Below, piece by piece: positions 2,203 to 58,339 of a stretch of DNA of 64,000 bases. Both the position numbers and the translations under genes were made by a program. Within the stretch, counting starts at the first letter, position 1; every line of letters begins with the position of its first letter. The notes under the pieces are model-generated. The model did no database searches. It was given only the letters and a program-made list of their open reading frames with translations, and was not told the origin of the DNA. The DNA is from Okamejei kenojei (lineage: Eukaryota): contig CM069132.1 in the NCBI GenBank assembly GCA_035221665.1, forward strand, positions 75,268,001 through 75,332,000. Direction: 5' to 3'.

Positions 2203-2769
2203 AAGATCAGCAGATTGGTCTTCTCTCCTGTCGGTCGTCGGGATGGCAATGCCCCTTCTGGCTTCCGCTGTCAATCACCAGGGCAAGTAGAATAAAGCCC
2301 CAGAGTCCAGAAGCCACCCAGAAGCCATTCAGAAGCCTTCCCAAAGTCGTCCTGAAGCAATCCTGAGCCCGTGAGTCCCGAGTCCGTGAGTCCCGAGTCC
2401 ATGAGTCCCAAGTCCATCCCGAGTCCAGAAGCCGCCCCGAGTCAGGGAGCCCCGAAGCCACCGCCGAGTCAGGGAGCCCGGAGTGCGGAGCGGCCCGGAG
2501 CCTGGCCGACTGCGAGGCCGACTGCTGCAATCTCAAGATCCTGGGGAAGTGAGGTGTGAATATGGGGGATTGAGGGAGCCAGGCGCTGGGGTGGCCAGGT
2601 GATGGTGGGGCACACCACACCCGCCCACACAACCCCTCCCACCTACACCTCCACAACCCCTTCACCTCGCACACCCCACAGCAGCTGCAGGCCACAGCAG
2701 CGGTAGGCCATGGCAGCGCTCCCCATTCCCCCACTGGCACTCTCCTGAATCCATCCGTCTCCCCTGGCT

Positions 2770-3495
2770 ACAGAACACTCACCCCCTCGCTGGCTTCCGC
2801 CTGAAGCCATCCCCGTCCCCGGCTACATGACGCTCCCGCTGGCCCCCACCTGAAGCCGTCCCACTCCGGTTGCAGGATGCTCCTGACAGCCCCCGCTTGA
2901 AGCCGTCCCCATCCCCAGCTGCAGGATAATCCCCCCCCCCCCCCCACACCGGCCGCCCGCCTGAAACTGTCCCTGTCCCCACCTGCAGGATGCTCCCCAC
3001 CGACCCCCTCCTGAAGCCGGTGGGGAGCGGCAGTGGTAATGCCAGCAGTTTCCTGGCTGCCGGATACTCTACCCTCCCCCACCGGCTCAGATAGTCCCCG
3101 CCTGTAGCTGTCCCCCTCCCCGGATGTAGGATGCTCCCCCCCGACAACCCCCTCCTGAAGCCGACCCCATCCCCAAGCTGCAGGACGCCCCTACCCCAGC
3201 TGCAAGTCGTTCACACCCCACCTGCCCCTGATGGCCCCTGTCTGAAGTTGTCCCCCTCCCTGGCTGTAGGACACTCCCCTGGACCCCCGACAACCCCCGC
3301 CTGAAGCCGTCCCCCTCCCCTGGCTGCAGGCTGATTCCCCCACCAGCCCACGTCAGCCCCCACCTGAAGCCGTCCACCTCCACTGGCTGTTGGATACTTC
3401 CCCCAGCAGCTCCCGACAGCCCCCACCTGAAGTCGCCCTTCTCCCCGGCTGCAGGATGCCCCCCCGACAGCCCCCACCTGAAGCCGTCCCGCTCC
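2770..3495 (+). repeat. GC-rich minisatellite (~55-65 bp units, core CCTGAAGCCGTCCCC...GGCTGCAGGA)
   Basis: About a dozen degenerate units; the reverse-complement array occurs at 46500-46860. Confidence 0.9.
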
Positions 3496-3824
3496 CTGAC
3501 TGAATGTTGACTTCTAAGGTAAATTCTCATATTTTCTTCAAGTTAAAGTTTGACCACTCAATAACGTCTCTATATTAAAATGGTGTGTATTTTCTTTCAC
3601 CTACCACAAAGAGACATCGAGCTGCAGTGACCAGCAGAATGCAACAAGAGAAGCGAAATGAAAGAACTGAACTGAATAAACCTCATCTTTAACGTTTAAA
3701 TTGTTGTTGTACTTTAAGAGTAATTCACATTTTAAGCTTTAATAAATCCCTTTTCCATGCCTTGCCCATCAGCTGCGCCTGTGCAGTAATACCTGCGTGT
3801 TCTACATCACAATGACCATATGGT

Positions 3825-4470
3825 CACTGGATCTCTATATCAGCAAAACAAAAGAATTGATTGTGGACTTAGGAAGAGGAAGGTTGAGGATCCGCAATCC
3901 TGTTTCCATCAATAGGATGATGGTGGAGTGAGTAAAAAAAAAAATCAAATTCCTGGGCGTGCATATTTCCGCGGATCTTTCCTGGACCCAGCACACTGAA
4001 GCAATAATAAAGAAAGCACATCAATGCCTCTACTTCCTGAGAAGATTACGGAAATTCGGTATGTCAAAGCGGATTCTCTTGAACTTCTAAAGGTACACAG
4101 CAGAGAGCACACTGACATTGCATCGTGGCCTGGTTCGGTAACTTGAATGTCCAGGAGCGGAAAAAACTGCAAAATGTTATAAACACTGCCCAGGCCATCA
4201 CTGGTTCTGACCTCACCACCATCGAAGGGATTTATCATAGTCACTGCCTCAAAAAGGCAGCCAACATCATCAAAGATCCACACCATCCTGGCCACACACT
4301 CATCTCACCACTGCCATTGGGAAAAAGGTACAGGAGCCTGAGAACTGTAACACCCAGGTTCAGGAACAGCTTCTTCACTACGGCCATCAGGCTGTTGAAC
4401 ACTACAACCTCATATGCTCTGAACTACAATTGATTTTTATTATTATTATTGCACTGTTATTGTTTGTTCT
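3825..4470 (+). mobile_element. Rex1/Babar LINE 3' fragment
   Basis: ORF 4125-4433: WFGN...KAANIIKDPHHPGH...GKRYRSL...RFRNSFF..AIRLLN, typical Rex1 ORF2 C-terminus. Confidence 0.85.
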
Positions 4471-5363
4471 TTTTGTTCTGGGTTGAGGGGGAATGGAGTG
4501 AGTGCATGGGGGAGATGGCAAGGGGTGGAGTGGGGGGGGGGGGGTTGAGGGGGATCAGGAGCGCCACAGGAACCCATCAGCCACGCCTGTGCAGTTGGGA
4601 GCTATGGGAGAGTGGTGGAATATTGTGTTGGGGGACCGGGCGTCCCAGGTGACAATGGGACCCAACGGGTCCCACTTTGTCTAGTATCTTTTAACAGTAA
4701 TGTTTGTGGGTCCATCCCACTTAACATGTTATAAACTGCAAGTCTGAGTCTTCATGGGAAAGAAATTGAGGACCATTAATGTAGTACATTAATAGATAAG
4801 TGTCCAGTCACCATTGGCAGTGTGATTAACTGTGGAGATGATACCGAATGTGGAAAAGGTTTTTAAAGACTGAAGTTAGATTGTCATTTAATATCTTGAA
4901 TGAGAAATTCATTCTTAACACATCTGTAGTATAGGAGGTGCATTACTCCTGTCTGAAGGTGTGTGATAACAGGCTAAGAACTTGGAATATGGCTTGCTTT
5001 GTGTAAGAAAAGTCCTTAATTGATCCTTTTGTGGAAAATAACGTTGGTAGTCTGCAATCGCTAAACATATAATTGAATTTTATTGTAACGGTCATCAGAT
5101 TATTATCTGGAGGATTTATTTTTGTGCTTTTTAATTAATACAAGTATTAACTTTTAATTCAAAGTATACAAAGCCCTGTTTACTGGATAGTTTTGCTACA
5201 TCACTGAGGGCACCACACACGCACTGTTGTATGTTTCACGTGTTATATCAGCTGGCAACCACCGTAACTATTTTAAAACTGCACCACATTAAGGATTGTA
5301 TAATACAATATGACCAGTCGCTTTCTGGATTGTTGAAACTGTTTGTGTAGAACTTGCCATGAG

Positions 5364-8470: not shown

Positions 8471-8489
8471 AGACAACTTATGTTCAGCA

Positions 8490-13188: not shown

Positions 13189-15579
13189 CAGGGCCGGCCT
13201 TAAGCCAATTGGACCGATTTCTCCCAATTGGGCCCTGTGCCTAAGGGGAGCCCCTTGTTAATTTTCCGTATTTCATATGGAAATACAAATTCGCTTTGTT
13301 AAATAAAGAATAAAAATAAACATTCGCCATATGGATTTTTTTACAAAACGAACATGGATAACAACCGCTGCACGGCCATCAGACACAAATGATTTGTTAA
13401 CTACTACTGTTAGCACTTGTTAACAGCCAGTAATTAACAAGTAGTGTACAATGTGTCATCAATGCATCGATCCACATTCCTCAGTAAATGTAATTGTATA
13501 TTGAACAAATATTAATGACAATAGACAATAGACAATACATAATAGACAATAGACAATAGATGCAGGAGTAGGCCATTCGGCCCTTTGAGCCAGCACCACC
13601 ATTCAATGTGATCATGGCTGATCATCCACAATCAGTACCCCGTTCCTGCCTTTTCCCCATATCCCCTGACTCCTGCTACCTTCAAGAGCCCTATCCAGCT
13701 CTCTCTTGAAAGCATCCAGAGAACCTGCCTCCACCGCCCTCTGAGGCAAAGAATTCCACACACTCACAACTCTCTGTGAGAAAAAGTGTTTCCTCATCTC
13801 CATTCTAAATGGCTTACCCCTTATTCTTAAACTGTGGCCCCTGGTTCTGGACTCCCCCAACATCGGGAACATGTTTCCAGCCTCCAGAGTGTCCACACCC
13901 TTAACAATCTTATATGTTTCAATAAGGATACCTCTCATCCTTCTAAACTCCAGAGTGTACAAGCCCAGCCGCTCCATTCTCTCAGCATATGACAGCCCCG
14001 CCATCCCAGGAATTAACCTTGTAAACCTACACGGCACTCCCTCTATAGCAAGAATGTCCTTCCTCAAATTAGGGGACCAAAACTGCACACAATACTCCAG
14101 GTGTGGCCTCACTAGGGCTCTGTACAACTGCAGACGGACCTCTTTGCTCCTATACTCGACTCCTCTTGTTATAAAGGCCAACATGCCATTCCCTTTCTTC
14201 ACTGCAATACCTGCTTGCTTACTTTCATAGACTGATGAACAAGGATCTCCAGATCCTGCTGTACTTCCCCTTTTCCAAACTGATGCCATAGTAATCTGCC
14301 TTCCTGTTTTTGCTACCAAAGTGGATAACCTCACATTTCTCCACATTAAACGTCATCTGCCATGCATCCGCCCACTCCCCGAACCTGTCCAAGTCACCCT
14401 GCATTCTCAAAGTATCGCCCTCCCAGTTCACACTGCCACCCAGCTTTGTGTCATCTGCAAATTTGCTAATGTTACTTTGAATCCCTTCATCCAAATCATT
14501 GTCATATTAAGATATGAGGTAATTAAATCATCATATGCTTTAATTTCAGGTCATCCAAGTAAGATATTTAATATTTGTTTCAGAATGCTTCAATCTATAA
14601 TAACTGAACATTTCATTCAGTTTTCTTAATTTTTAAGAAAGTTATGGGCTTTGACTGTCCTCGATCACAGCTTTTGTGTTAAGTCAATGGAAAAGCAATA
14701 GGGTACAAAATGCTAATTTCCAAGTATGAAAATGACCATAACCTTTTTAATACTGAAGATATGAAAGTGAATTAGGTGTCAAATTAAACTTCTTTTTATG
14801 CTTTATCTGGTGGGATAAATTGCAGACTGGATTTTTTAAATCTCAAAATTTTGTAACATTGTTAGAAAATGTACCTGCACCTTGGAGGCTGAAGGTTAGG
14901 TTGTTAGCCAAGAAAGATAGACGTCGTTATCTTTTAAGCCAAGTCTATCGCTCATTGCTCGCTGCTGATGGGAAGCGGCTGTAAAGTGGGAAGCGCCTGT
15001 AAAAGGACAGCACTGCTGGGGGGAGGGGGGGGGGGGGGGGGGTTGGGAGGGGGGAGTTCCTTTCACAGTGTGTGGGTAGTCTGGCCAGGGTAAAGTTGCG
15101 GGAAAGGCAGGAGTGTTGAGAAGGAGGGGGTCGGGGATCATGCCAGCATCCAGCTCAACAGTGGGTCAGCGGGCGATGGATAACAGGACAGCGGGCGGTG
15201 GTGCTTACTTCATATGTCAGGGCGAGTAACCTCAATTGATCCCTTGTTCGCGCTGACACAGAAGTAAGCTCCACCGCCCGCTGTGATGTTACCCATCGCC
15301 CGCTGACCCACTCCGCTCTATGATCCTTGCACCCATTCAGTAATTCAGAAAGAAGGAGATTTGGAAGCCTTGGGCAAATTGAATTGTTTATTTATTTTTA
15401 TTTTTTATTTTTACAGAGGAGAACAATCTGTGCATGCGCGGTTTAAGATTTTTTTAAAGCCGACTGACTGTCATATTACTCACAACACGTGCCTGAATAT
15501 GACTCGTTTATAATTATATATTTATATTTCTGTGAAGATTGTTCCCAATTGCGCCCCGCACCTCCTAAGGCCGGCCCTG
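13189..15579. mobile_element. Non-autonomous hAT-type DNA transposon
   Basis: TIR CAGGGCCGGCCTTA...TAAGGCCGGCCCTG; perfect 8-bp TSD GCTGGGGT (13181-13188 and 15580-15587). Confidence 0.92.
13517..14495 (-). mobile_element. CR1 LINE 3' fragment nested in the hAT element
   Basis: KFADDTKLGG and ALVRPHLEYCVQFWSP; (TATTGTC)n tail at 13517-13560. Confidence 0.93.
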
Positions 15580-37932: not shown

Positions 37933-37939
37933 AAACGAT

Positions 37940-40873: not shown

Positions 40874-40921
40874 GATTTTGTTCCCCTGATGATTGGAAAT
40901 ATGTGGAACTGCAATTTTCAA
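40874..40921 (+). CDS. Candidate host exon (FCSPDDWKYVELQFS)
   Basis: Acceptor ttttagctgtccctag, donor CAA|gtaggt; 48 nt, symmetric, in frame with exon 36578. Confidence 0.55.
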
Positions 40922-40998
40922 GTAGGTGTACAAATAAATTCTGTAATGGAATAATTTCTAGGTGCAGTTCCGAGCGCTGATTAATGATTGGTACTTGT

Positions 40999-42174
40999 CA
41001 GGGGTGCAGTGCTGCTGGAGCTCACCGGAGCGCTGCTCCGGCAACTCTGTAAAGAAAAAAGCAAAAATAAACAGCGGGGAATTTTAACTCGTGTTTGGGT
41101 AACCTGGTTAAAAGAGGGGAAAAGGGGAAGACCCATCACATAAGTGGATAGGTATATGGACGTGAAGGGAATGGAGGGGTATGGTCTGAGTGCAGGTAGA
41201 TGGGACTAGGGGAAAACAAATGGTCGGCACGGACTGGAAGGGCCGAGAGGGCCTGATTCCGTGTTGTAATTGTTATATGGTTATATGGTTATATGGTTAT
41301 ATCACGATTGAGGTTCCCTGTAGGAGGGGGGAGCAGTAGGACCCAGCAGAGTCAGACCACGTGCTGTCTGCATCGTGGAGGTTGTGGGGCCGATGCTGAG
41401 CCTGGAACTCTGGTGAGGTGATGCCTCCGGCCCGCTGGTGGTCGGTGGAGAGGCGAAGGTCGGCGGTGTTGCAGGTGGAGGCCCGTGTGGGGCTGAAGTA
41501 GAGATAAGGGTCGGCGGCTGCAGCATCGGTGGCCCAGGGAAACAGTGAAGGTCGGCGACAGCGGCGGTGTCCCCGGGGAGGTTGTGAGAATCGACAACAA
41601 CAGCGGTGGCCCCAGGGAGGCGGTGAGAGTCGGCAGCCACAGCAGTTTCAGTGGTCTGTGAAGACGGTGAGGGTCGGAGAGGTAGTGGACGTTGTTGCTG
41701 CTCCTCATAGTGGCCATTTCGGCCTTGTGGTGGTCGGGCAGTTGGCACCGCGGTCCAGCGGTGGAGCTCCGGGCCTGCGGGCGGGTGGGCGGTTGAGTCA
41801 AGGAGGGACCGGTCTGGAGGTGGGCAAGCTTGTGTCCAGTTAGGCGAGGAAGCGTTTGATGTGGGTGTGGATCTGGCATCGAATTAAATAGAGTTGTAGT
41901 CCATTGCAGGTGTGAGTGGGTGAATGGGTGGGTGAGTGAGTGGTTTGGTGAGTGAGTGGTTGGGTGAGTGTGGGTAGGTGTGAGTGGGTGAGCGAGTGGA
42001 TGGGTGAGTGATGGGTGAGTGGGTGGATGAGTGGGTGGGTGTGTGTGAGTGTGTGAGTCACCCCTTGGAGACCCGCTTGTTTCCCCCCCCCCCCCCCCCC
42101 CCCCCCAAGCCAAACCTGAAATGACGCCCCTGTTTGACAGCTCTGGCACCCAAAAAATGAGCACTGCAACACTG
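40999..42174. mobile_element. Non-autonomous hAT-like element with (GTGA/GTGG)n microsatellite
   Basis: Imperfect TIR CAGGGGTGCAGTGCT / AGCACTGCAACACTG; 8-bp TSD GTACTTGT / GTACGTGC (6 of 8 match). Confidence 0.7.
41140..41300 (+). mobile_element. CR1 3' tail nested in the hAT-like element
   Basis: Near-identical reverse complement of 39227-39375; flanked by an ATCAC duplication. Confidence 0.9.
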
Positions 42175-42220
42175 GTACGTGCAGTTAGTGAAAAGTTACA
42201 GAGGACAGTGGATGCTCATG

Positions 42221-43320
42221 GCAGGGCTACCAACTCTCACGCATTTAACAAAATTCTCATGCTCTCACGCTGATCACAAATTTCTCACGCTCAAATATTT
42301 TTTTAATAAATAAATAAAGTCAAAAACAATTCAATTCGCCCAAGGCTTCCAGATCTCCTCCACACTCATGAATGAGAATAGTTTTCTATCGGCGCGTTCC
42401 CCGTAAAGAACGAGCAATTTAATTGTCTTAGACTAGAGCACACTATTTAAAATGGCAAACTGCAGTACATTTGACATTCATGGAACCAAAATCTGCTAGT
42501 GCTGGAAATTCAAAATAAAGCAAAAAAATGTATAGAGCTGAGTAAAAAACACGAGGGGAATATATATAAGGTGAATGCATATTATTTTCCCCGGATATGT
42601 GATTCAAGAACAGAGGGCAATGATTTAAAGCACGATTGTCAAACTACTGGCCTGCGGGATGATTTGGGGAAAATAAAAGTTTAGTTTCTCCCCTGCAGAT
42701 GGTGTCAGTGCCGGCCTTAGGAGGTGCGGGGTCCAATTGGGAACAATTTTGGTGGGCTCCAGGTTCCCAGCCAAGGTGTGTAGAATCATAGAAATATAAA
42801 TAAAGTCTATTATAGACTTTATATCTCTATGGTAGAATGGAAAGTAATCAAAATGTGATAGGTGAGACACGGCGGTGGTCCCAGCACAGATCCCTGAGGC
42901 ACCGCTCACACCTCCCACCCTCACCTCCGTTGGCCGCTCTGTCCACACCCGATGGTGTTTTAACCCCGGCCCAGAGCCAGGAGCGGACCGGGTGAGTGGG
43001 GGCGTCTGTGCTGCCTCCGGAGCCGGGGGGATGAATCTTGGCCTAGGCTCCGCTCCGATGCCCGACCCCCAGGTTACTGACCATCACCTCCCCTGGACCC
43101 GCGGGTCACTGACCATCACCTCCCCCGGACCCCAGATGGACACAGAGCACCTGGGCCGGCCCGCATTCCCGGGGAGAGATTGGGGTGCTTGAGGAGGGGG
43201 GTGGGTGGGGAAGCTACAGGGGGAGGGGAGAGGGAAACGCTCCCAGGGCATCGCCAAGTTTCAGCTCACTCTGGATGTTGTCGCGGCTTCACTGACCCAC
43301 ACTCTCACACACACACTGGC
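42221..43320. mobile_element. hAT-family fragments
   Basis: CAGGGCTACCAAC end at 42221; 42325-42360 is the reverse complement of 15352-15390; CAGTGCCGGCCTTAGGAGGTGCGGG at 42706 matches an end of the 13189-15579 element. Confidence 0.55.
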
Positions 43321-43639
43321 ACACACAAGGTTTCAAGGGATATGGGCCAAATGCGGATAAATGGGACTAGTTTATATGGGGCATCTTGATCTGTATGGAC
43401 AAGTTGGGATGAAAGGCCTGTTTCCATGCTGGAAAACTATGACACATTGTAGAAAGGGTGCAATTGCTCTGGAGAGGATCCAGGGGAGATTTGTGAAGAT
43501 GTTGATAGGGCTGGTATTTTTTTTTCACTTTGAAAAAAGATTTGGTAACTGGGATTGTATTCTCTGCAGCAACGGAGGTGAAGAAAATACTTAGTTGAGG
43601 TGAATAATATGAGAATAGGACCAATTTCGCTTAAAAAAG

Positions 43640-43775
43640 TGTAGGAAGGAACTGCAGATGCTGGTTTAAACTGAAGATAGACACTAAAAACTGGAATAAC
43701 TCAGCAGGACGCAGCATCTCTGGAGAGAAAGAGAAAGCTGGGTGATGTTTCGGGTCGAGACCTTCAGACTGAAGA
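43640..43775 (-). mobile_element. Penelope-tail mini-insertion
   Basis: aggaactgcagatgctgg...gatgtttcgggtcgagaccttcagactga. Confidence 0.8.
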
Positions 43776-43904
43776 GGTTGAAAACCAGCCAGAAAACAAA
43801 ATGACTGGATATGTGTGTTATCCAACTAAGGGCAGAAATCAGAATCATGTGTTCATCTTTATTGATGTGACACCATAATAAATATATTACAGAAAAAATA
43901 ATTT

Positions 43905-44112
43905 AATGGGGTGGCACATTGGCGCAGCAGTAGAGTTGCTGCCTTACAGCACCACAGACCCAGATTTGATCCTGACTACGGGTGCTGCTGTACAGAATTT
44001 GTACCTTCTCTCTATGACCACATGGGTTTGGATATTTCGGTCTCCCCCACATCCAAAAGAAGTGCAGGTTTGTAGGTTAATTGGCTTCTGTAAATTGTCC
44101 CTGGCGTATGGT
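43905..44112 (+). mobile_element. V-SINE, 3'-truncated
   Basis: tggcgcagcagtagagttgctgccttacagc head plus V-domain. Confidence 0.8.
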
Positions 44113-44149
44113 AGACAGGATTTCAGCAGGATTTCTTGAAGCAGGAATT

Positions 44150-44905
44150 TTCCACATCAGCATCATTTCCCCTTTTCACTATTTTCTCAGTCCTACCTGG
44201 TCGGAGATGCGGTTTTCCTTCGAGTCACATCTTCGCCCTCTCGGTGGGGCCTACCATCGGGACTGGAGCGGCATTTCCTGGCGGGACCGGCCGGGACTAC
44301 AGCTTTGGTGGCGGCACAGTGCTGGGACACCATCACGGAGCAGGTGATGCCTTACCCGGGTCGCCGTGCGGTAAGCTCCGGAGTGCCGTGACCGCCGACT
44401 CCAACATCCGAGGAGCTGTGGCTGCGGGCGTCCAGCCACGGGCGGTGCTGGATTTAAAATACTGTGGAGCTGGGATCTCTCACCGAGATCGACAGAGTCG
44501 GGAGCCGCGGTCTCCGGGGAGGAAGCAGCCATTTCAGACATTCTAAGCCGCTGAGGAGTTTTCCCCCGATGCCGGAGTTCCATCTTCCCGGCAAGAGGGC
44601 CTATAACATCGGGCCACCGATGCAGGGACTGGCTGCGGAGGCCTCAAATAGGCCCCGACCACAGGTGGACTAGGAGGACGAGGACTGGACTTTTTGGTGC
44701 CTTCCCTCACAGTGAAAAGTGTTGATCCTGCTGTGGGGGGATGTTCATGTTGAATCCTATAGTGTATTGTGTCTTTTTTTCTTTTTTTCTTTTATATGGA
44801 TGTAAGGTAAACTAATTTCTTCTCTGTAAAGCACTTTGGCTTCAACATGATTTGATTTAAAATGCTTTATAAATAACAATTACTTACTTACTTACTTACT
44901 TACTT
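44150..44905 (+). mobile_element. Unclassified GC-rich retroposon with L2-like tail and (TTAC)n
   Basis: Ends tgtaaagcactttg...aaatgctttataaataa followed by (TTAC)n. Confidence 0.55.
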
Positions 44906-46480
44906 AGTGTTGCTGCATACATCTTGAAGAATTCTGTCCACCGCTTCAAAGCTCTCTGTCCTAATCGTTGGGCATTCATCCCAAACAATGAGTTTCACTT
45001 GCCTCATCAAACGTGCAGTGTTAGAGTTCTTGTCAATGTTGCAGAATGTATCCTTGATCACTTGGATGGGTATCTTGAATCGGGAGTTCATCCACCAGGC
45101 ATGAATGTATCTGCTATCCCAGAGGATGCTACAGCAATAGCCTTGACCTCTACCTTTGGAGAGGTAGAGGAGGAGCAGGAAAAACATTTCTCACCAATTT
45201 GAACCTCTACCTTTGGAGAGGATCAAATTGGTGATAAATGTTTTTCCTGCTCCTCCTGGTGAATCAATGAAAAACATTGAAGGAAGCTTCCTTTTCAAGC
45301 AGTTGCACACCTGATCATACACTGTTCAGCATTCAGCAGAGGCTCATTTCCCTCAACAAATTGCTGTTCTTCAGTTCTATCGTATTGCAATTCCTGCAGC
45401 AATTCTGGATTGTCATCATCAAGGTGCATCCTTCCATTTCTTGGTCGTGGCAAATGAAAGCATTCCATTGTTTTGTTGTAATTCTCAAGCTTGTCTTGAA
45501 TATACAACAGAGCCTGATCATGATGCTTCTCTTCAATCATGATATTAGGATCACTCATTGTTCTCCATTCTTTTTCAAGGTAATCTTCAGATTTGAATGC
45601 TTGAAGTGATCCCATAATTGTCAAGGATTGTTGATCTCAGTATTCGTCAGCAAAACAACAAACAAATCTCTCATTGCACTGGGGATGTCTTCTCAGCATC
45701 TTCCATTGTTTGTTGCCAATGGTCATCAGTCTACAACAGACGTCTTTGAAGAAAGGATGAATTTCTCCATTATATGTCTTCAATGAATCAAAGGATATTT
45801 GCCCTTTTACGTGATGGAGAAGCAGTCTCAAGTAGTAGAAGTTACCATATCTTGGAGACACGGTATACACTTGTCCCACAACATTGGCTTCAAAAAGACC
45901 TGGAAGATCTTCCACTATCTTCCTAACCTTCCCTCTTTGCCATCTCCTATTGTTCTATGTGTAAAATCAGGGAACATCAGCATAGTCGAGTGTTCTTGGA
46001 AATGGCTCTCCATGTGAACACGATGCCATGAATTCAGTTAAAGTCGTTCTCATCATATCATCATTGCTCACTTGCTGAGCAGCATTAACTCTGATAACAA
46101 CCCGTCATTGTTGTGGTAGATGTACCTGCAGTCAAAAGACAGCGGGTTGTCTCTCATGAGTCGGAAATCCAAGGATTGATGCCACTGCTTCTGATGGATC
46201 AATGTATCTGGAAGTCAAGTACTGTATGATTTTGTCATCCCTGTTAACTCTAAAAGCTGCTTGATCACCACCCTACAAGGTGTATTTGATGACGTATTTT
46301 ACTGACTTTACAGAGGAGCATATCTCAACGTTGATGTGAGATTTGAACAACTTCAATAGTTGAGCATTATAGGGCACCACCCAATCAGAAATGATAGGTC
46401 GATGCCAGTGTCCCTCATGATGTCCCTGAAATCCTCCCATGAATGGAGATCTTCTCCTGCACAGAGCATATGAATTATGT
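44906..46480 (-). pseudogene. Helitron RepHel remnant (PIF1-like helicase and upstream linker)
   Basis: WVVPYN..LL..F..HINVEICSSVKSVKY..KY, YTVSP....YYLRLLL.HVKG..SF..LKT, FIDSPGGAGKTF (Walker A), AVASSGIA, LIVWDEC (Walker B); stops and frameshifts. Confidence 0.93.
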
Positions 46481-46494
46481 CTGCACCTTGTACT

Positions 46495-46955
46495 CCTGGT
46501 GGGGGGTTGGGGGGGAGCATCCAGCAGCTAGGAGAGGGGGTCGGCTTCAGGCGGGGGCTGTCGGGGGGGGGGGTGGGGAGCGGGCGTTCAGCAGCTGGGG
46601 GAAGGGGACGGCTTCAGGCGGGGGCTGTCCTGGGCCGAAGAGGGGGAGCATACTGCAGCAGGGGAGGGGGACGGCTTCAGGAGGGGGCTGTCGTGGACCG
46701 ATGGGGGGGGGGGGGGAGTGTCCTACAGCAGGGGGGAGGAGGACGGGGACAGGGACAGCTTTTGGCACGGGCCGGTGCGGGGGGGGGGTGGGGGGGGGCG
46801 GGAAGCGTCCTGCAGCTGTGGTAGGGTGAGGGCTTCAGACGGGGGCCAGTGGGGGGGGGGGGGTGGCTTTCCGGAGGGCTAGTATGGGTGTGGTGGGCGA
46901 AGGGACTGGTTACCAGAGGGCTAGTCCTGCTGCTGGGGACAGGGACGCTCACCAG
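46495..46955 (-). repeat. GC-rich minisatellite, same family as 2770-3495
   Basis: Repeated GGGGACGGCTTCAGGCGGGGGCTGTC, the reverse complement of the 2.8-kb array core. Confidence 0.85.
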
Positions 46956-48038
46956 CTATTTAACCATTCATTCTCCAGTTGAGCTTCCAAATAAATGATG
47001 AGCAATGGGAAAATTGATCATTTCTGAGCCCAGTATTCCACCTCCAGCCCTCCCATTATACACTCGATTACCGCTGTAGCTCCCATCGCTATCTGGAAGC
47101 CTGGAATGTGTGAGCCAAATCATTGATTCTGTAGCTGTTCCAAACATCACTGTTGATGCACATTTATAATAGGCCAAATACTGGGGAGGTAGGAAATTAA
47201 GAATGTATCATAGGGAACAAGACTTGAACCTCATCAAGCATGGGATGGTAAAAGGCAAGTAGCATTTGTGTCGTACAGATGCAGGCAATGGCTGTCTCCA
47301 ATGAGATGGTGTCTAACTCATTGCCATCAACAACTGAAGGTTCACCATTGACCAACCGCATAAATAATTCTAGGAGAACAGCTAAAGGACTGGGTATCCT
47401 ACAGAGAAATGCACTGTCATGTGACTCATGTCTCTACATCACCCACAAGCCACAAGTCTGGAAAAGTTGGAATTCTTTCTATTCATCTCGTCAGCTTGAC
47501 AAAACTCAGGAGATAGAACCTGTTTGACAACAATACCAAAACATTCCTTCTGTTCACTGACACCTGTCTGCAATATGCATCATTTATAAAATGCGTTTGC
47601 AATTACTCACTTAGCATATTCAGACATCTCCTGTTAAACCTGCAAACTCTGGTACCATGAAGGACAAGGGCAATGTGAACATGGAGACACCAGCACCTGC
47701 AGGTTTTCCTCCAGGTGACTTTAAAATAAATTGCTGTTTCCGCATCACTGCTGCTTCACAATGTTGGAACTGCCCACCTAACAGAGACGGATCGCAACGG
47801 TTCAAGAAGGCAACTCACCGATATGCTCTCAAAGCCACTTACAGATGAGCAATAAATAGCGGCTTTGCCTGCAACATCCAAATTTAAAAAATGGATCAAT
47901 AAAAATGAAAATGAGAACATTGCTCTTCTCCTCGAAATGGTATCTTTCAAAATAAGTCTCAATTTATATGTCTTTTCTGTAAAAACTTGGGATTGTTCCA
48001 ATTTTTAAACAATCAAAAAAAAAAATTTTGGGTCACAG

Positions 48039-48067
48039 AAAATGATTTGCATTCAATGCAGCACCAG
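48039..48067 (+). CDS. Candidate host micro-exon (NDLHSMQHQ)
   Basis: ttttgggtcacag acceptor and CAG|gtaaga donor; in frame after exon 40874. Confidence 0.45.
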
Positions 48068-49504
48068 GTAAGAATGTTCCTTCTATTGGTCTGAAAAGGA
48101 GGCAGACTGGATTAGTCATAGAGTCGTAGAGCAAAGACGCAGGACCTCTATGCCTCACCATGGCACTTAATAAAATTGTCACATCTCTGTACTTTTAACA
48201 TGAGCAGCAAAAAAGTGTATTTTTTTACTTTTTATATATTGTTTCACATTGAATTTATAGGCTGTAATGATTGGTTGATGCTTTATCATTTTCTGCTCAG
48301 TTATACTTTGTAATACTATGCATAAGGGTGGTAATGAATTTACTCAGCAAATATGCAGAGGATTTTTCCGACAGGATAGAATACTTGGAAAAATCTCCAT
48401 GAAAGGATGAATCCTTAGAAAAAAATCCTTGAAAGGATATTCTGTTAAGATTGAATGACAAACAATGGGAGAGCAAAACACAAAATGCTGGAGAAACTCA
48501 GCAGGTCAGGTAGCATCTGTGGAGGGAATGAACAAATGTCGTTTTGGCTGGGACCGTTCATCAGATTGATTGGAGTAGGGGGGTGAAAAGTGGAAAAGAG
48601 AGGTGAGGGCAGGACAGAGCTGGGCAAGTCATAGATGGATACGGGTGAGGGGAATGGGTGGTTGGCAGATTGACAGATTGGCAGAGCAAGTAACAAAGGC
48701 TAGAGGTGAAAAGGAGACAAACGTTTATCAGATAAGGAGAGAGGTAGAGATAGGAAATGTTAAACAGGAGAGAGGAATATGGATGGAAGGGGACAGGGGT
48801 TAACGGAAAATGGAGGACTTGGAATTAAAGGTGAGCGAAGGAGGGGAAAGGAGCAGGGTGACTGAGGTATGACTGTTGAAGAAAATGGGTGTGCACCTGG
48901 GTGGGGGGGATGCATGGGAAAGAGAATTCAATGGCCATATTGTTGGGACATACGCTACACAAATGGAATATGGGGACGCTGTTCCTCCCGTATGCACGTA
49001 ACCTCACTCTGGCAACAGAGGAGGCCACTGACAGAAAAGTCAGTATGACAACGGGAAGGGAGTCAAAATGGTTAGCAACTAGGAGCTGCAGCCGGCCCTG
49101 CCCTACAGAGAACAAGTGTTCCGCAAAACTGTCGCCAAGTTGTTGATGTTAAGGAGACCATATCAGGAGCAGGGTTTGAAGAGGTGCACATGAAATTCTC
49201 TTATTTGGAAGGGTTGCTGGATGCAAGTGAGAGGGGATGTGTAGGGACAGGTGTTTTCGTATCCTGTGACTGGGTTGAATTGGGTGGGAAATGATGAGTG
49301 AACTGAAAGGATGAGTCTCTACAGAAAGCTGACAGGAGTGGGGTTGGAAAGATGTAACTAGTGGTGGGATCGAATGGAAGGTGGCAGACATAGTTCGAGA
49401 ATTATGTATGGGATATGGAAGCTGGTGGGGTGAAAGGTAAGTACGAGGGATACTCTATCCTTGTTCCGTCTAGGGAGAGGGGGAATGTGAAGGGGAATGC
49501 TTAG

Positions 49505-49803
49505 GACGGCAAAATGGCGCAGTGGTAGAGTTGCTGCCCTACGGTGATAGAGTCCCAGTTTCAATCATGTTTATGAATGCTGTCTGAATGGATTTTGCAC
49601 GTTCTCCCTGTGAACGTGTCGGTTTCCTCCAGGTGCTCCAATTTCCTCCCATATGCAAATGACATACATGTTTGTAGATTCATTGGCTTTGGTAAAAATT
49701 GTAAATTGTCCCTAGTGTGTAGGATAGTGTTAGTGTACAGGGTGATTGGTGCAAAATCGGTGGACCGAAGGGCCTATTTTAGCACTGTATCTCTAAAGTC
49801 TAA
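49505..49803 (+). mobile_element. V-SINE (HE1-like)
   Basis: tggcgcagtggtagagttgctgcc head; ggtttcctccaggtgctcc V-domain. Confidence 0.88.
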
Positions 49804-49804
49804 A

Positions 49805-50288
49805 AGTCCTGGGATGTCAGGACTGTCTTATGAAGAAAGACTGGATAGACTCGGTTTATACTCTCTGGAATTTAGGAGATTTAGAGGGGATCTTATAGAA
49901 ACTTACAAAATTCTTAAGGGGTTGGACAGGCTAGATGCAGGAAGATTGTTCCCGATGTTGGGGAAGTCCAGGACAAGGGGTCACAGCTTAAGGATAAGGG
50001 GAAATCCTTTAAGACCGAGATGAGAAAGACTTTCTTCACACAGAGAGTGGTGAGTCTCTGGAACTCTCTGCCACAGAGGGTAGTTGAGGCCAGTTCATTG
50101 GCTATATTTAAGAGTGAGTTGGATGTGGCCCTTGTGGCTAAGGGGATCAGAGGGTATGGAGAGAAGGCAGGTACGGGATACTGAGTTGGATGATCAGCCA
50201 TGATCATATTGAATGGCGGTGCAGGCTCGAAGGGCTGAATGGCCTACTCCTGCACCTAATTTCTATGTTCTATGTTTCTATGTTTCTA
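49805..50288 (+). mobile_element. CR1 3' fragment
   Basis: PGMSGLSYEERLDRLGLYSLEFRRFRGDLIETYKI plus ttctatg tail. Confidence 0.93.
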
Positions 50289-50497: not shown

Positions 50498-50811
50498 AGT
50501 TTAGTTTAGATAAGCAGCATGGTAACACAACCCTCAACCTACTGTGTCCATGCTGATCATTGATCACTGTTCATACTAATTCACACAAGTTCACTGGTTC
50601 ACACTCATCCACACCCTACATACGATGGCAGGATTTAGGGGCCTATTGACCTACAAATCCGCACATTTTTGAGATGTGTGAGGAAACTGGAGCACCCGAT
50701 AAAATTCCATGTGATTACAGGCAGAACGTGCAAACTCCACACAGACAGCAAATAAAGTCAGGATCGAACCCACATCTTTGGCGCGTGCTCTACCAATTGC
50801 GCCACTGCACT
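50498..50811 (-). mobile_element. V-SINE (HE1-like)
   Basis: Minus-strand gtggcgcaattggtagagc..gggttcgatcctgac head plus V-domain. Confidence 0.8.
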
Positions 50812-51097
50812 GCCCTGTGATGGGGACAGGGAGATCGAGAAAGGGAAGAAAGGTATCAGAGATAGTCTAAGTGAATTTGAGAACAGGGTGGAAGTTAGTG
50901 GTAAAGTTGAATTTATTGACGCAGTCATCAATGTAGCAAAGAAAGAGTGGGGGTGTGGTGCAGGTAATTTGGAACAAGCTGCGTTCAATGTAACCAACAA
51001 AGAAACAGGCATTGTTGCGGCTTGTGAGTGCCTATGGTTATACCTTTGACGAAGAAGAACAAGTAGGCTTTTGTCTATATAAATGTTTCCTAATAAT

Positions 51098-51550
51098 CAT
51101 AGTCATATAGTCATACAGCATGGAAACAGGCCCTTCAGCCCAAAATACCCACACCGACTAACATATACTATCTACACTAGTCCCACCTGCCTGCATTTGG
51201 CCCATATCCCTTTAAACCTGTCCCATCCATGTACCTGTCCAAATGTTTCTTAAACGTTGCGATAGTACCTGCTTCACCTACCTCCTCCGGCAACTTGTTC
51301 CTTACACCCACCACCCTTTGTGTGAAAAAGTTACCCATCCGATTCCTATTAAATATTTCTCCCCTCATCTTAAACCAAAGTGGCCTGGTACTCTATTCCC
51401 CTATTGTGGGCAAGAGTCTCTGTGCATCTTCCCATTCTATTCATCTCATGATTTTGTACATCTCTATAAGATCATCCCTCATTCTCCTGTGCTCCGAATA
51501 GAGTTCTAACCTGTTCAACCTCTCCCTACCTCAGGCCCTCGAGTTCTGGC
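51098..51550 (-). mobile_element. CR1 3' fragment
   Basis: NFFTQRVVGV.NKLPEEV..A.T...FKKHLDRYM. Confidence 0.88.
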
Positions 51551-51630
51551 TTGAAAGAAAAATCCTAATTCTGATATGTTCTTCAAAAGGTGCACTTTTC
51601 AACACTTTAGAACTATACAGAGTATACTTT

Positions 51631-53470
51631 GGGTACACAAAAGGCTGGAGAAACTCAGCGGGTGCAGCAGCATCTAAGGAGCAAAGGAGATAGGCAACGC
51701 TTCGGGCCGAAACCCTTCTTCAGACTGATGGGAGGTGGGGGGGGGGGAGAAGAAAGGAAAAAGGAGGAGGAGCCCGAGGGCTGAGGGAGAGGTGGGAAGG
51801 GGAGGAGACAGCAAGGGTTAACAGAATTGAGAACATTCAATGTTCAAGCCCAGAGGATGCAGACTTCCCAAGCGGAATATGAGGTGCTGTTCCTCCAATT
51901 TGGCGGTGTTGCTCACTCTGGCCATGGAAGAGGCCCCAGGACAGAGAGGTCGAATATGGAATGGGAGGGGGAGTTGAAGTGCTGAGCCACCGGGAGTATC
52001 GGGTTGGTTATTGGGGACCGAGCGGAGTTTGTTCGGCGAAACGATCACCAAAACCTCCGCTTGGTCTCACCAATATAGATCAGCTGGCATCTAGAGCAGC
52101 GGATGCAGTAGATGAGGTTGGAGGAGGTGCAGGTGAACCTCTGTCAGACCTGGAAGGACTGCTTGGGTCCCTGAAAAGAGTGGAGGGGGGAGGTGAAGGG
52201 ACAAGTGTAGCATCTCTTGCGGTTGCAAGGGAAAGTGCCCGGGAAGGGGTGGAGTGGGAGGGAAGGGAATAATTGACAAGGGAGTTGTGGAGGGAGCAGT
52301 CTTTGCGGAAGGCAGACGGGGGGAGATGGGAAGATGTGGCGAGTGGAGGGGTCACGTTGGAGGTGGCAAAACTGGCGGAGGATGTGTTGTATGCGCCGGC
52401 TGGTGGGGTGAAAGGTGAGGACCAGGGGGACTCTGCCCTTATTGCGAATGGGGGAATGGGGAGAGAGGGCAGTGTTGCGGGGTATGGAGGAGACCCTGGT
52501 GCGAGCCTCATCTATAGTGGGGGAGGGGAATCCCCGTTCTCTGAAGAATGAGGACATTTGTGATGACCTGGTGTGGAACACCTCATCCTGGGAGAAGATG
52601 CGGCGTAGACGGAGGAATTGGGAATAGGAGATGGAGTCCTTACAGGAAGCAGGGTGGGAGGAAGAGTAGTCCAGGTAGCTGTGGGAGCCAGTTGGTTTTT
52701 AGTGGATGAAGGTCAGGAGTGTATCACCTGCAATAGAGATGGTGAGGTCAAGGAATGGTAGGGAAGTGTTGGAAATGGTCCAGGTCTATTTGAGTGCCGG
52801 ATGGAAGTTGGTGGTGAAATGGATGAAATCAGTCAGTTGTGTGTGGGTGCAGGAGGTGACTCCAAAGCAGTCGTCGATGTAACGGAGGTAGAGGTCGGGG
52901 ATGGGGCCCTGGTGCGCCGAGAACAAGGATTGTTCGACGTACGCGACAAAGAGGCAAGCGTTGCTGGGGCCCATGCGTGTGCCCATAGCTACGCCGTGTG
53001 TTTGGAGTAAATGGGAGGAGTCAAAAGAGAAGTTATTGAGGGTGAGGACCAACTCCGCTAGGCGGAGGAGGGTGTCAGTGGACGGGTATGGGTCGCTCCT
53101 CTGGTCGAGGAAGAATCGGAGGGCTTTGAGACCATCCTGGTGGGGGGTGGAGGTGTAGAGTGACTGGACGTCCATGGTGAAGATGAGAGGATGGGGGCCT
53201 GGAGAATGGAATGCGCGGAGCCGACAGAGAGTGTCTGAGGTGTCTTGAACATAGGTGGGAAGGGATTTAACCAAGGGGGATAGGATAGAGTCAAGGTATG
53301 TGGAAATGTGTTCGGTTGGGCACGAACAGGCAGAGACAATGGGTCTGCCAGGGCAGTCAGGTTTGTGGATTTTGGGGAGAAGGTAAAATCAGGCCGTGCG
53401 GGGCTGGGAAATGATGAGGTTGGAGGCTCGGGGGGGGCAGCGAGCCGGAGTTGATGAAGTCGGTTATGGT
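51631..53470 (-). mobile_element. Penelope-like retroelement, young, same family as 34406-35955
   Basis: RPIVS, TMDVQSLYT, GVAMGTRMGP and LRYIDD RT motifs; GIY-YIG region; same tail end ggctggagaaactcagcgggtgcagcagcatctaagg. Confidence 0.95.
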
Positions 53471-54054
53471 CCATAGCAAGTTCGTTTGCCTCAAGTCGTG
53501 TCCACGTATGATCCATGCGTTCGCAAGCCGACAATGGCTCCCTGTAAGGCAACCTGTCTAGTTTAAAACTCTGATCGTTGTTTTCAAAGCCCACTATTCC
53601 CTTTGCACCTACGCAGTCCAAAGCAGATTCACCAGGCAAATTCCCGAGAGAGAAGGGTGCATGCTATTAAGAGAGCTAAACAGTTTGGTGTTGTATTCCT
53701 TGGCATTTATTAGAATGAGGGCGACCTTATTAATCAAATAAGATACTAAGAGGACTTGTCTGGTAAGTATAGAGATACCTACCACAAGTTCTACTATGGA
53801 GATATACATCTTACCACTGGTGGGATAGTCACAAGTAAGGTGACACAGTGACAGAATAAGGTAATTTAAAACTGAGGTGCTTCGAAATTTAAGGGCAGGC
53901 CATTAGATATATCTAAGATCGAGCCAAATAAATAATTCAAAGATCAATGAATTGAGGGTAATGGGAAACTGACATAGAAGAGGATTTGAAGCCAGCATAG
54001 ATCAGCGGGACAGGCTTGAGGGACCAATTAGCTAAATTCCCGCTATTTTCTTAT

Positions 54055-54159
54055 AAAGGACAAAAAATTGCTGGAGTAACTCAACGAGTCAGACATGGAT
54101 AGGTAATGTTTCGGGTCAAGTCCCTTTTTCAGTCTCCAGCATCTGCAGTTCCGTGTATC
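54055..54159 (-). mobile_element. Penelope-tail mini-insertion with 12-bp TSD
   Basis: CTATTTTCTTAT at 54043-54054 and 54160-54171. Confidence 0.8.
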
Positions 54160-55336
54160 CTATTTTCTTATGTACCTGTAACCTCTACCTGCCAGAAAAT
54201 GTTCATTAGATAGTTGCAGGATCCTGGAATTTTAATTACTCCATCATTGGGAGCTGCAACTTCAGCTGCTATCATCTCAGCCTTTGGAATTCCCTCTCTA
54301 AGCCTTCCAACTTCTCTATATTTGTCCTCTCTTTTAAGACACTTATTCATCCCTTCACCTCCCCTAATTACTCATTTTGTTTGATAGTAACTCTTGAGAA
54401 CCACCTTGCTATATAATTACAGATTGTTGATGTGGAAATGTATTTGTACCAAAATGCAATTCAGTGATCTGCGCTTGGCATTGGTTCTACTTTAGCTCCA
54501 GTTGACAGCAGGTTAGTAGTTAAAAGTAAACAGGGTCAAGGAAGCAATTTTACATTTATATAGAAGAGTTGTGCAAAACCCCGTCGTAAAGATGGCTATA
54601 CTGACAATCCAAACACTCTTGAGGCCTCAGAATAAGGTTTAAATCCTGAACACCCTGAGTGCTCTTTGTGTTCTTTCATCCAACTGCACTCCATTGTTAT
54701 GCACTCCATTGACTACACTCCAATGGGCCAATGGAGTCCAACACAAGAGCATTGACTTCCTGCAGATTCTCATTAGACCCATTATATGTTCAATGGGTCC
54801 ATTCATTCCAATGTAGAGGCACAACACCAAGGCAGATAAATATTTTTGAGGTAAATTTACAATGTTTTGAATTGCAAGCATTTAATTTGAATAAGGCTTT
54901 ATGTATTTCATTGGTCTTAAATGTTCATTTCTAGTTCAATTGTTTATTTGATTTTTATTATTTAAATTTAATTTTAATTGTATAATTAATGTCATACGGT
55001 TTTGATTGTTTGTTAATGTCAGTGACAATTGATGACAGCTTTGACTGCAGGAATCTCAAAATGGTAAAAGCACAAGCGAGACCTCTCAGCTTCTCCTCCA
55101 TCCGTGCTTTCTGCAGGGAAAGTGCAACTAATCCCACTTCTTTTCCCCGTCCAAACGAAAACTAGTGAAACCCATGCCCCAATAATTTATGGTTGCTAAT
55201 ATTGATCACAGTTTATTATTTCTAATTTAAATCTAAATGCCCTGGCAGTGAAAGGATTTTGTCATTTGTTAACATCTCTGTTTTGGCAACCCAGTATATA
55301 ACCACTCTTCCACCATCCCCCACACTGGCATTTGCT

Positions 55337-55408
55337 TTATAAGTTCGGGGTAATGGTCTTCCCTTTCTGTCGCCACTTATTAATTTGACTTTGCACATCA
55401 GCGAGAAT
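55337..55408 (-). CDS. Possible terminal coding exon of a convergent gene (ILADVQSQINKWRQKGKTITPNL*)
   Basis: Minus-strand acceptor gtatgtcttcag, short open frame to TAA, then AT-rich UTR-like DNA with AATAAA near 54945; no upstream exon established. Confidence 0.2.
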   Translation of the reverse strand: MLADVQSQINKWRQKGKTITPNL

Positions 55409-55824
55409 CTGAAGACATACACATGATGACCACATTGAATTGTTTTATATCCCATGACGAGAGATATATCAGGTGGTCAATTATAATGAAACAGGGTATT
55501 CTGCACACATTTTACTGCAATTCACGCATATTCCCTGCCAAAGAGTATAATTGTAGTAATAAATCAAAGAACATTTTCTTTAACACAAACCCATTTCCTG
55601 CCAAATATTCAATTTTGTCCTACAGTTATTAACCTTCATCAATGTTGACTGGTTAGGTTTTGCTCTTCAAATGTTATCCAGCCTGCAACTGGCACCCAGC
55701 ACCAAACCAGCAGGGAACAAGAGGGAGGATGACCAAATGACTGGTCACAGAGCATCATGTTAAAGAGTGTGTTGAACAAAGGATGAGATAGAGGGATGAG
55801 GTAGAGTATGATAATGACGATAAA

Positions 55825-56140
55825 ACCTTTTTTTATTATTCAGTTTAGTTTATTGTCACATTGTACTGAGGTACAGTGAAAACCTTTTGTCGCGTGCCAT
55901 CCAGTCAGCAGAAAGACAATATACGATTACAATCGAGCCATATACAGTGTATATATGCATAATAAGGGAATAACGTTTAGTGCAAGGTAAAGCCAGCAAA
56001 GTCCGATCAAGTGTAGTCCGAGGGTCACCAATAAGTTAGATAGTAGTTCAGCACTGCTCTCTGGTTGTGGTAGGATGATTCAGTTGCCTGATAACAGCTG
56101 GGAAGAAACTGTCCCTGAATCCGGAGTATGGGTTTTCACA
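55825..56140 (-). mobile_element. Rex1-type LINE 3' tail
   Basis: Minus strand: ttcagggacagtttcttcccagctgttatcagg...cactgtacctcagtaca.tgtgacaataaactaaactg. Confidence 0.75.
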
Positions 56141-56783
56141 CTATGTTGATTGTGCTGATTGGGGACTAAGTATATTGGTCATGATGCCACACACATCTTT
56201 TATGTCTGCTTGAGAGAGCAGACCAGACCTTCGTTTAATCTCTCATTTGAAAGAGGGTACCTCTGGTAGTGCACCATTTGATTAGCACAAAGATCATTTT
56301 AAAGTTGAGCTGAGATATTTAGTTCTCAAGTCTCTGAAGTATGGCTTGAGCTTACAAACCTCAGACTCAGAGTCTGAAGTGCAACCACTGAGAGCTAACA
56401 GTGTGTGCCTGACAACTATTCAAGGAGAGTTCAAGCATATTTCAGCATCTTAACAAGGCCAGCTCACAAGCCTTGCATTGTACCCATCAGTGAGACGACA
56501 ACAGACGCTGGTGGATGGATCAGAAGAAGGAGACAAAGAGGAATAATGTAAAAGCAAGATGACCAAGCCCAAGTTTAAGATACCGTGAAAGGTAATTGAC
56601 TCCATTAGCTTGTGAATCCCTTATTCGAGGCAATATCTTTTCATGGATCAGAACTGCTGAAAACTGCAAGTGAACACCAATCATTTTGTGTGGATTCCAA
56701 TTATTAGAGTTGGCTCCTTTTATAGAGAAAAAATCATAACTAAAATTTAACGAAAAAGGTGTAAAGTTTATTTTTACGAATTA

Positions 56784-58339
56784 CTAGAATAAGTGGGACC
56801 CGTTGGGTCCCTGTCATACAGGAGGCTTGGTCCCCCAATGCAATATTCCACCATTCACCCATAGCCCCCAACTGCACAGGCGCAGCTCATTTCCCCTCAT
56901 CCCTAGCACTCTCTCCCCCTCCTCCACCCTCCCTCTTCTTTCCCTTCTCCTCCTCCACTCCCCAATCCCTCCCTCACCTCTCTCTTCCTCTCCTTTCCCC
57001 TACCCTCAGTCACTCCCTCCCTCCCTCCATAACTCCTCTCCCCTTGCTACCCCCTCTATTCCCCATCTCCCCCACTCCTCACTATAGATCAGTGTCACTC
57101 ATGTTGTCATGCTTTTGTAGTTATGCCCACTAGCTTTACAATAACCCTCCCTGCCTGGTTCCCGCATTATTAGAAAAACGTGCTAGCATGAAGTGATCTG
57201 TGCTATGTCATTAATAAAGTCTTTGGACCTTTATCACGGTGTAAGGCTTCAGTTATTTGGACAGCCGCAACACAACACTCACCCTCTACCCCCCCACTAT
57301 TATCCCTCACCTCCCCCACTGCCCTCCTCTCCCTCTATTCCCAAACTCCCTACCCCCCCACCTCTCCCCTCTTCCTCCCTCCTCTACTCCCCCCTCCTCT
57401 CCTTCTATTCCCCCTCCTTTCCCATTCTCCCTCCTCACCTCCGCCCTCTTCTTTTCATTCTCCTCCTCCCCTCGCCAAATCCAATCCTCACCTCTTCCTC
57501 CCTCTCCTTTCCCCTACTCTCAGTCACTCACTCCCTCCCTCCACAGCTCCTCTCCCCTTCCTTATCCCCTCCTCTCCTTCTACACCCTCTCCTCCCCAAG
57601 TCTCCCTCCCCAGAATCTCGAGGTTGCCACTTCTCTCCCTTCTTGCGTGTCCTGGAGGAGCATCAGCCATCGGCGCCCACAAAGCCAGGTCTCGGTTTGG
57701 CCCAGAAACAACAGCAGCTGGGGGGGGGGGGGGGGGGGAAAGAGAGAAAGAGCTCAGAAAAAAGATGGGGAAGAGCCATGGGGGAGAGGGGGAGGGTATC
57801 ACGGGGACGGGGCAGGAGCCAGCGAGGGGGATCCATGTGGAGCTGCAGGGCATTGCGATGGCAGTGCATTTGGGATTCACAGCGGGTGCTGGACGCTCTC
57901 CTCCACCAGGATCAGACTCTCCCCTTTCTGTTTGGTGACATTGCTGAGCTGCTGGGCTGCTGCTTGCAGCTGGGCTGCTTCGGGTCCCTCCAAAAGTCCA
58001 GTTGGAAACCTCCGCCGCCTTTCCTCAGTTCCAGTAAAGACGCGATAGCACAAGAAGGGGCCGACCATCCCGGGAAGTGACAGGGGAAGAGACTAATCCG
58101 CGCGGCGCTGGAAGACAGGAGAAGAGATCGATCTGCGCATGCACGTTTGTTAAGATTTTTAAACCTCGCTAACTTTGACGACATTGAACCAATTGGAACA
58201 AAACTTGGTGGACTCGCAGCATAGGAGAACGGTGAGTGAACTGGCGAAAAATTGTAGTGCTGTCGCGAACCATTTTTGCGCAAATAGAATGACCGCCAAA
58301 CCAGAAGATAACAAGATCAGAGTTTTAGTTATGTATAGA
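56784..58339 (-). mobile_element. Complete non-autonomous Helitron
   Basis: Minus strand A|TCTATACATAACTAAAACTCTGATC ... GGGACCC-AAC-GGGTCCC (56795-56811) ... CTAG|T; inserted at an A|T site with no TSD. Confidence 0.9.
57083..57277 (+). mobile_element. Probable solo LTR inside the Helitron
   Basis: 195-bp AT-richer insert in a C/T tract; CTCAC duplicated at 57078-57082 and 57278-57282; ends ..AACA; AATAAA at ~57213; starts TA rather than TG. Confidence 0.5.

Follow-up and report, generated by a model that had tools for sequence, protein, structure and literature searches.

A Helitron family of the skate Okamejei kenojei whose tandem repeats probably grew in its own non-coding DNA

How do members of one transposon family come to share their ends while enclosing quite different tandem repeats? 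The question is raised by a 64,000-nt stretch of the Okamejei kenojei genome (GCA_035221665.1, CM069132.1, positions 75,268,001-75,332,000, forward), hereafter the window, which contains three elements with the same 3′ hairpin: A (plus strand, 3′ end at 4684), B (minus strand, 20179-24255) and C (minus strand, 56784-58339). A fourth, truncated member, D (minus strand, about 44.1-46.9 kb), carries the same GC minisatellite as A and was missed by a first-pass annotation of the window. That annotation correctly described the interiors as a GC minisatellite in A (period 63 bp, 69% GC), a 31-bp satellite in B (36% GC) and low-complexity DNA in C (purine/pyrimidine-biased, 88% purine on the minus strand), and interpreted them as cargo captured by one modular Helitron chassis. 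Our preferred reading, to which we give a probability of about two in three, is that A, B and C belong to a single canonical Helitron family as non-coding members of three separate sublineages. They would be derivatives that likely arose by internal deletion, with repeats that expanded in place out of non-coding DNA of the element, mostly in the predicted first intron of the transposase gene, RepHel.

The exact hairpin occurs three times in the window, at 4657, 20190 and 56795 (0.15 expected; none of 100 shuffles reaches three). Each hairpin is followed by 7 nt and then by CTAG and a T, placing the ends at 4684 (A), 20179 (B) and 56784 (C), and the three 3′ ends fold into hairpins with z-scores of -4.2, -3.6 and -2.3. 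The 17-nt hairpin ends 11 nt before the element end, and a 5′ TC terminus is present in B, C and other copies and decayed in A. Canonical Helitrons are described, in the available excerpt of PMC4067079, as having a 3′ CTRR and a 16-20-nt palindrome about 11 nt upstream; by every feature tested, A, B and C are canonical (Helitron1-type) Helitrons. Their terminal 30 nt agree pairwise at 26-28 positions, which unites them under the family rule that the final 30 nt be 80% identical (PMC4224331, excerpt). They belong to different subfamilies because their first 30 nt differ (18/30 identical between A and C), with the opening 30-40 nt homologous across all heads. The first-pass annotation had recognized both the shared hairpin-CTAG-T end and the similar subterminal sequence, and had placed all three ends correctly.

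It had also proposed a genome search for the hairpin-N7-CTAG pattern, which returned 5,936 exact matches and none for the reversed control; the exact B-type 5′ pattern returned 3,853, again with no control match. These counts are lower bounds because copies depart from the majority sequence at 7-8% of positions (measured on 53 B ends and 16 B heads). The 3′ ends examined were the first 90 matches, all on contig C1, and our samples come mostly from the start of that contig. T directly follows CTAG in 86 of the 90, and a head lies within 2.5 kb upstream of 40/60 ends, compared with 4/60 in a farther control. Among 33 complete copies with flanks, A precedes the TC in 26 and T follows the end in all 33. 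Testing these 33 flank pairs gave seven spanning hits, four of which were dismissed as self, tandem or simple-repeat matches. The three paralogous empty sites counted (loci L027, L173 and L285; one represents a B-type copy within CR1) all join A to T without duplication. No empty site was found for A, B or C themselves, and a duplicate of part of the window 188 kb away carries C and D and excludes A and B. Together with the RepHel-bearing relatives, these ends and insertion sites bear out the Helitron identification of the first pass.

D contributes a decayed RepHel fragment, 55% identical to residues 771-1297 of a skate RepHel. With this fragment and Pfam profiles as queries, longer copies were found, and decayed RepHel-bearing relatives exist for all three head types. 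The order is head, seven 31-bp units, RepHel, 30-bp array and B end in L111+L095; A head, GC minisatellite, RepHel and A/C end in L097+L230; and C head, RepHel and A/C end in L109 and L094. L095 matches PF14214 (E 1e-54) and PF05970 (E 6e-65) and has the same hairpin-CTAG end; the family thus has a partner with a single RepHel open reading frame (ORF; HUH Rep plus PIF1 helicase), as expected of canonical Helitrons, although in broken copies. The RepHel fragments behind A-, B- and C-type heads share 84-87% identity with that of the window, so one transposase lineage serves all three head types. Among 101 PF14214 and 150 PF05970 matches (150 of 517 PIF1 candidates scored) there was no intact transposase; the longest open frames among the matches scored are 452 amino acids (PF14214) and 466 amino acids (PF05970), with 518 in L096, and the family looks inactive in this assembly. 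The closest proteins among the matches are from skates (68-82%: P0120 of Rhinoraja, P0121 of Leucoraja, P0002 of Amblyraja) and share the single-ORF Rep plus PIF1 layout of this genome's copies; P0120 (1,614 amino acids) has an open full-length frame, in contrast to every copy seen here. The match to skate proteins points to a likely skate host and bears out the cartilaginous fish that the first pass proposed. The nearest non-skate RepHel proteins (P0122, P0123 and P0127, 57-59%) include that of a freshwater snail and are followed by arthropods at about 40%; judged from these similarities, horizontal transfer of RepHel is possible.

The heads and the region before the RepHel start codon have features of a gene start. 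A TATA-like motif is present in 30 of 69 regex-found heads; in 23 of these 30 an initiator-like motif follows at 28-30 nt, and in 16 a donor-like motif stands farther downstream, motifs that would mark promoter, initiator and splice donor. A conserved acceptor-like motif precedes the RepHel ATG, which is kept at 23 of 28 exact-motif loci; an intact skate RepHel aligns with its residue 1 at the same ATG, immediately after the acceptor. The head would correspond to promoter and exon 1, and the predicted intron 1 would tolerate expansion. Four contig-type sequence runs, two of them probably of DNA, showed no joint or loose end at the predicted donor or acceptor among the matches listed and carry no weight either way. 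A joint at L130:2844 was considered as a sign of splicing and rejected: its position is that of the start codon, and derivatives in which a DNA-level deletion connects this place with the helicase are common. In such derivatives (L298-L324), whose start codon is fused to the helicase region, GT repeat accounts for about 1 kb of the predicted intron.

Repeats of the 5′ part are located upstream of the start codon, between the predicted donor and acceptor; the 30-bp array instead follows the ORF. GC-unit sequence is found just upstream of the acceptor at 26 of the 28 exact-motif loci, where strict GC-unit cores number 0-2 in 25 and 11-13 in three. Single units of the 70-bp and 37-bp repeats occur in RepHel-bearing L129 and are arrayed in ORF-less copies, and RepHel copies contain a 34-bp variant that matches the 31-bp unit (none of 500 shuffles was as good). 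In RepHel-bearing relatives, the stretch upstream of the start codon already contains the GC unit and either the 31-bp unit or a relative; captured host DNA is not the best description of these repeats.

Tandem arrays are common to the family. One lies in the last 1.2 kb of 27/30 copies, compared with 8/30 downstream flanks, and in 44/60 copies, compared with 6/60 far-upstream controls. Further interiors consist of units of 19, 30, 31, 37, 41, 47, 48, 70 and 72 bp, plus GT runs. Some units are akin (48 with 41 bp, z 10.5; 41 with 70 bp, z 5.8). Exact-unit patterns of differing stringency matched 7,526 times for the 48-bp unit, the commonest counted, 1,121 times for the 31-bp unit and 98 times for the GC unit. 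Every one of 29 examined 31-bp loci, found with a Helitron-borne unit as query, borders on a head or a 3′ module that has the same orientation (both ends in 22; one array, L277+278, extends beyond the examined stretch), and the longest array comprises 380 units, or 11.9 kb, between intact ends. For the GC minisatellite, queried likewise, a non-repeat Helitron module lies within 1.5 kb at 26 of 27 loci. Because these loci adjoin Helitron modules, the family disperses repeats, as the first pass had proposed.

These observations suggest a course of events. Slippage or unequal exchange in the element's own non-coding DNA would have generated the arrays, and deletion of the ORF would have left head, array and end; A passes straight from its minisatellite to the RepHel stop codon when its junction is compared with RepHel copies. 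RepHel would then copy ORF-less derivatives in trans by rolling-circle transposition. Insertion of one Helitron into another, with bypass of an end, would produce stacked heads and mixed modules. LINEs (long interspersed nuclear elements) and a solo long terminal repeat (LTR) arrived later. Two stacked heads occur in 14/60 copies, and the first-pass view of the family as modular holds across copies; each head clade mostly retains its characteristic interiors and ends. The ends, the target site, the RepHel relatives and the positions of repeats and seeds are observations; exon 1 and intron 1, amplification in place, ORF deletion, copying in trans and head stacking are inferred from them, with splicing a prediction. 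We put forward more tentatively, and with less than even confidence, that the RepHel first intron was a satellite nursery, its seeds amplified independently in different sublineages into about ten repeats and spread to thousands of sites by ORF-less derivatives, one reaching 11.9 kb inside intact ends.

Several points weigh against growth in place. The direction from seed to array is unpolarised, and the decayed RepHel relatives are possibly chimeric. The presence of a repeat in the parent may reflect ancient capture. Querying with Helitron-borne units biases the adjacency test, whose samples are again mostly from the start of C1. Promoter motifs are limited to 30 of the 69 regex-found heads, and 20/60 ends have no head within 2.5 kb. 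The head of the parent with the 31-bp array is only 76-78% like that of B, and parents whose heads are nearer (81-83%) have either a diverged unit or no unit at all. The GA-rich interior of C is the least well traced, standing ahead only of a short RepHel remnant (L124) or an ORF-less acceptor (L305). Neither the 31-bp nor the GC unit is convincingly similar to any of the other 10 units, the predicted intron of the B parent contains a fixed LINE-like scrap, and the exact junction at which L109 is fused occurs once in the genome, with no second copy.

Some of these points would favor capture of filler DNA, in which one chassis took up unrelated host repeats and gene pieces and then dispersed them. 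The 31-bp and GC units are mutually unrelated, C-type copies have a different exon-like module, and, because the LINE-like scrap is fixed there, some foreign DNA did enter the predicted intron. However, no free-standing source of the repeats was seen, all 29 31-bp and 26 of 27 GC loci adjoin Helitron modules, and seed units occupy fixed positions in RepHel copies; we consider capture as the general origin unlikely. Three independent Helitron families with a borrowed 3′ end, mixed by nesting and end bypass, with the RepHel parents as secondary fusions, would account for L109, in which a C-type element complete except for its final bases is fused at the acceptor, and for B-type subterminal remnants inside A-type 5′ regions. 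A 3′ end is also directly followed by a head in 8/90 cases, one of them perhaps just a TCTA run, compared with 1/60 in the control. This origin appears still less probable, as the first 30-40 nt of all heads are homologous and RepHel behind A, B and C heads is 84-87% identical to the window fragment. An artefact of assembly or chance, which the deletion-ridden part of B and the duplication of about 23 kb of the window at 96-99%, 188 kb away, might suggest, is refuted for the family by thousands of dispersed copies, zero control matches and clean empty sites.

The structure of the window elements is set out in Table 1. The start assigned to A by the first pass (2205) was wrong: a LINE, presumably of CR1 type by its motifs, splits A and separates its true head from the remainder. 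The LINE-like label of the second block within A is likewise presumptive. The TC starts given for B (24255) and C (58339) were correct; the statement that two elements share a 5′ end was too narrow, as heads are present in all three.

B contains three heads (at 24255, 23761 and about 22370), two CR1 pieces and, over its whole length, 57 cores of the 31-bp unit. Compared with other CR1 copies, its 22.2-23.2 kb region has 146 bases deleted, 3 inserted and 19 mismatched, whereas the CR1 tail at 21299-21599 has almost no deletions or insertions. Because deletions far outnumber insertions and mismatches, the region is probably unpolished long-read sequence.

In C, the solo LTR that the first pass counted as part of the interior is a later insertion, found at this position in C and in the near-identical duplicate of C alone, and absent there from C-type L025. 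A 76% relative of this LTR occupies another site in another family member (L052, L107). The exon-like module of C (57860-58090, minus strand) carries an ATG and ends in a donor-like motif, unlike B heads, and is possibly a captured host first exon. C-type copies outside the window contain an antisense exon-like piece (L124:2684-2773 and L166) that the window lacks; its possible resemblance to the start of ALG13 was unconfirmed by Pfam or PDB and was dropped.

Table 1. Features of Helitron elements A, B, C and D, by position in the window
Feature	Position	Strand	Basis
A: true 5′ head, decayed TC start	628-811	+	72% vs C head; 80-84% vs heads of RepHel-bearing L092/L097
CR1-type LINE inserted in A, secondary	812-2201	+	Both flanks contiguous in L097 and L092
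A: 5′ non-coding part, short 15-27-bp repeats	2202-2780	+	Module shared with L092, L097
A: GC minisatellite, about 63-bp unit	2780-3495	+	Amplified form of unit preceding predicted acceptor in RepHel copies
A: 3′ non-coding module from RepHel stop codon on; ORF deleted	3496-3800	+	81-83% vs L092/L109
LINE-like 3′ fragment within A, secondary	3800-4465	+	Block found outside A-type context in L110, L114, L289
A: subterminal module, hairpin, CTAG-T end	4470-4684	+	Hairpin match and fold
B: first 5′ head, (TCTA)n, truncated	24010-24255	-	90% vs second head
B: 35-bp variant of 31-bp satellite, 6.7 units	23776-24005	-	Tandem-repeat analysis
B: second head, complete; TATA-like, initiator-like and donor-like motifs (predicted exon 1)	23390-23761	-	89-90% vs other B copies
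B: deletion-ridden stretch with CR1 piece, satellite, third head	22170-23205	-	Likely unpolished sequence
B: main 31-bp satellite arrays, interrupted by CR1 3′ tail (21299-21599)	20444-22166	-	Repeat analysis
B: subterminal block, hairpin, CTAG-T end	20179-20445	-	Hairpin match and fold
C: 5′ head and exon-like module with terminal donor-like motif	57600-58339	-	75% over 608 nt vs RepHel-bearing L109
C: GA-rich low-complexity interior	56900-57610	-	Common to other C copies
Solo LTR in C, secondary insertion	57102-57277	-	176 bp, TG..CA, 4-bp TGAG duplication
C: subterminal module, hairpin, CTAG-T end	56784-56900	-	Hairpin match and fold
D: GC minisatellite with B-type subterminal remnant, adjoining RepHel fragment on its upstream side	46499-46925	-	Sequence comparison
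D: decayed fragment of RepHel, from Rep C-terminal part as far as PIF1 helicase motifs, stops and frameshifts	44912-46512	-	PF05970 E 4e-17

Elsewhere in the window, 25290-33620 holds at least two decayed elements that resemble DIRS-type retrotransposons; they have complementary repeats, both terminal and internal, as well as tandem arrays of their own with 62-94-bp units. An inverted pair (34401-35672 and 51772-53053) is 93% identical over 1.3 kb, and long palindromes lie at 15160-15312, 24880-25058 and 45168-45257, the last within the RepHel fragment of D. The duplicated parts, 40822-49807 and 50510-63988 (about 23 kb), recur at 96-99% identity about 188 kb downstream (L224-L227), the second part inverted; this copy is either a segmental duplication or an unpurged haplotype.

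Among the top-ranked literature matches, no publication on a skate Helitron was found, and the family may already be catalogued in Dfam or Repbase. The comparisons that follow draw on excerpts of the published accounts. Helibat and Helraiser of Myotis resemble the skate family in their 5′-TC, 3′-CTAG with hairpin and AT target, and in their many subfamilies or exemplars with a common 3′ end and composites formed by end bypass, a process already published (PMC4224331, PMC4778049). In contrast to the skate family, the excerpts concern captured genes and promoters, and the words "minisatellite" and "tandem" are absent from the main text of PMC4224331. Cg_HINE of the Pacific oyster (PMC7492417) and DINE-1 of Drosophila (PMC4067079) are described as having related flanks, different central repeats, a fixed orientation and genome-wide dispersal; fixed-orientation central tandem repeats between conserved flanks are found in the skate family too. 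However, those elements have Helentron partners, subterminal inverted repeats and T-rich targets, whereas the skate family consists of TC/CTAG Helitrons inserted between A and T. Helentrons are recognized by Rep motif 2, where an S separates G from P (PMC4067079), and a Helentron, HINE or DINE-1 identity was rejected, as this motif has the Helitron form GLPH in L095 and L096 and the empty sites read A then T.

A close parallel in layout is Heli2Xen of Xenopus, together with zebrafish Helitron-N1_DR, vertebrate Helitrons with arrays in both autonomous and non-autonomous copies (PMC12001565). In Heli2Xen, minisatellite arrays flank the autonomous copy and occupy the non-autonomous ones, and the authors link the autonomous Helitron to minisatellite birth and spread (PMC12001565). 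Heli2Xen is described with one 166-bp unit, whereas the skate family has about ten units of 19-72 bp, distributed by sublineage and mostly confined to a single slot ahead of the start codon. Helitrons that carry and spread repeats are thus already known from oysters, flies and frogs, and the principle is not new. What this case adds is a large skate family, with at least 5,936 ends, whose surviving transposase-bearing relatives reveal where the repeats sit. The family also matters for skate repeat annotation, because its broken transposases appear as uncharacterised genes. If the intron reading is true, it would explain how repeats were tolerated and diversified in a single slot. The oyster authors could not link Cg_HINE to an autonomous partner and left capture or intrinsic origin open (PMC7492417); in the skate, RepHel relatives are traceable. 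Were the RepHel first intron indeed a nursery of satellites, seed, short array and long array would coexist in one genome, making the question of capture versus intrinsic origin directly testable in a vertebrate.

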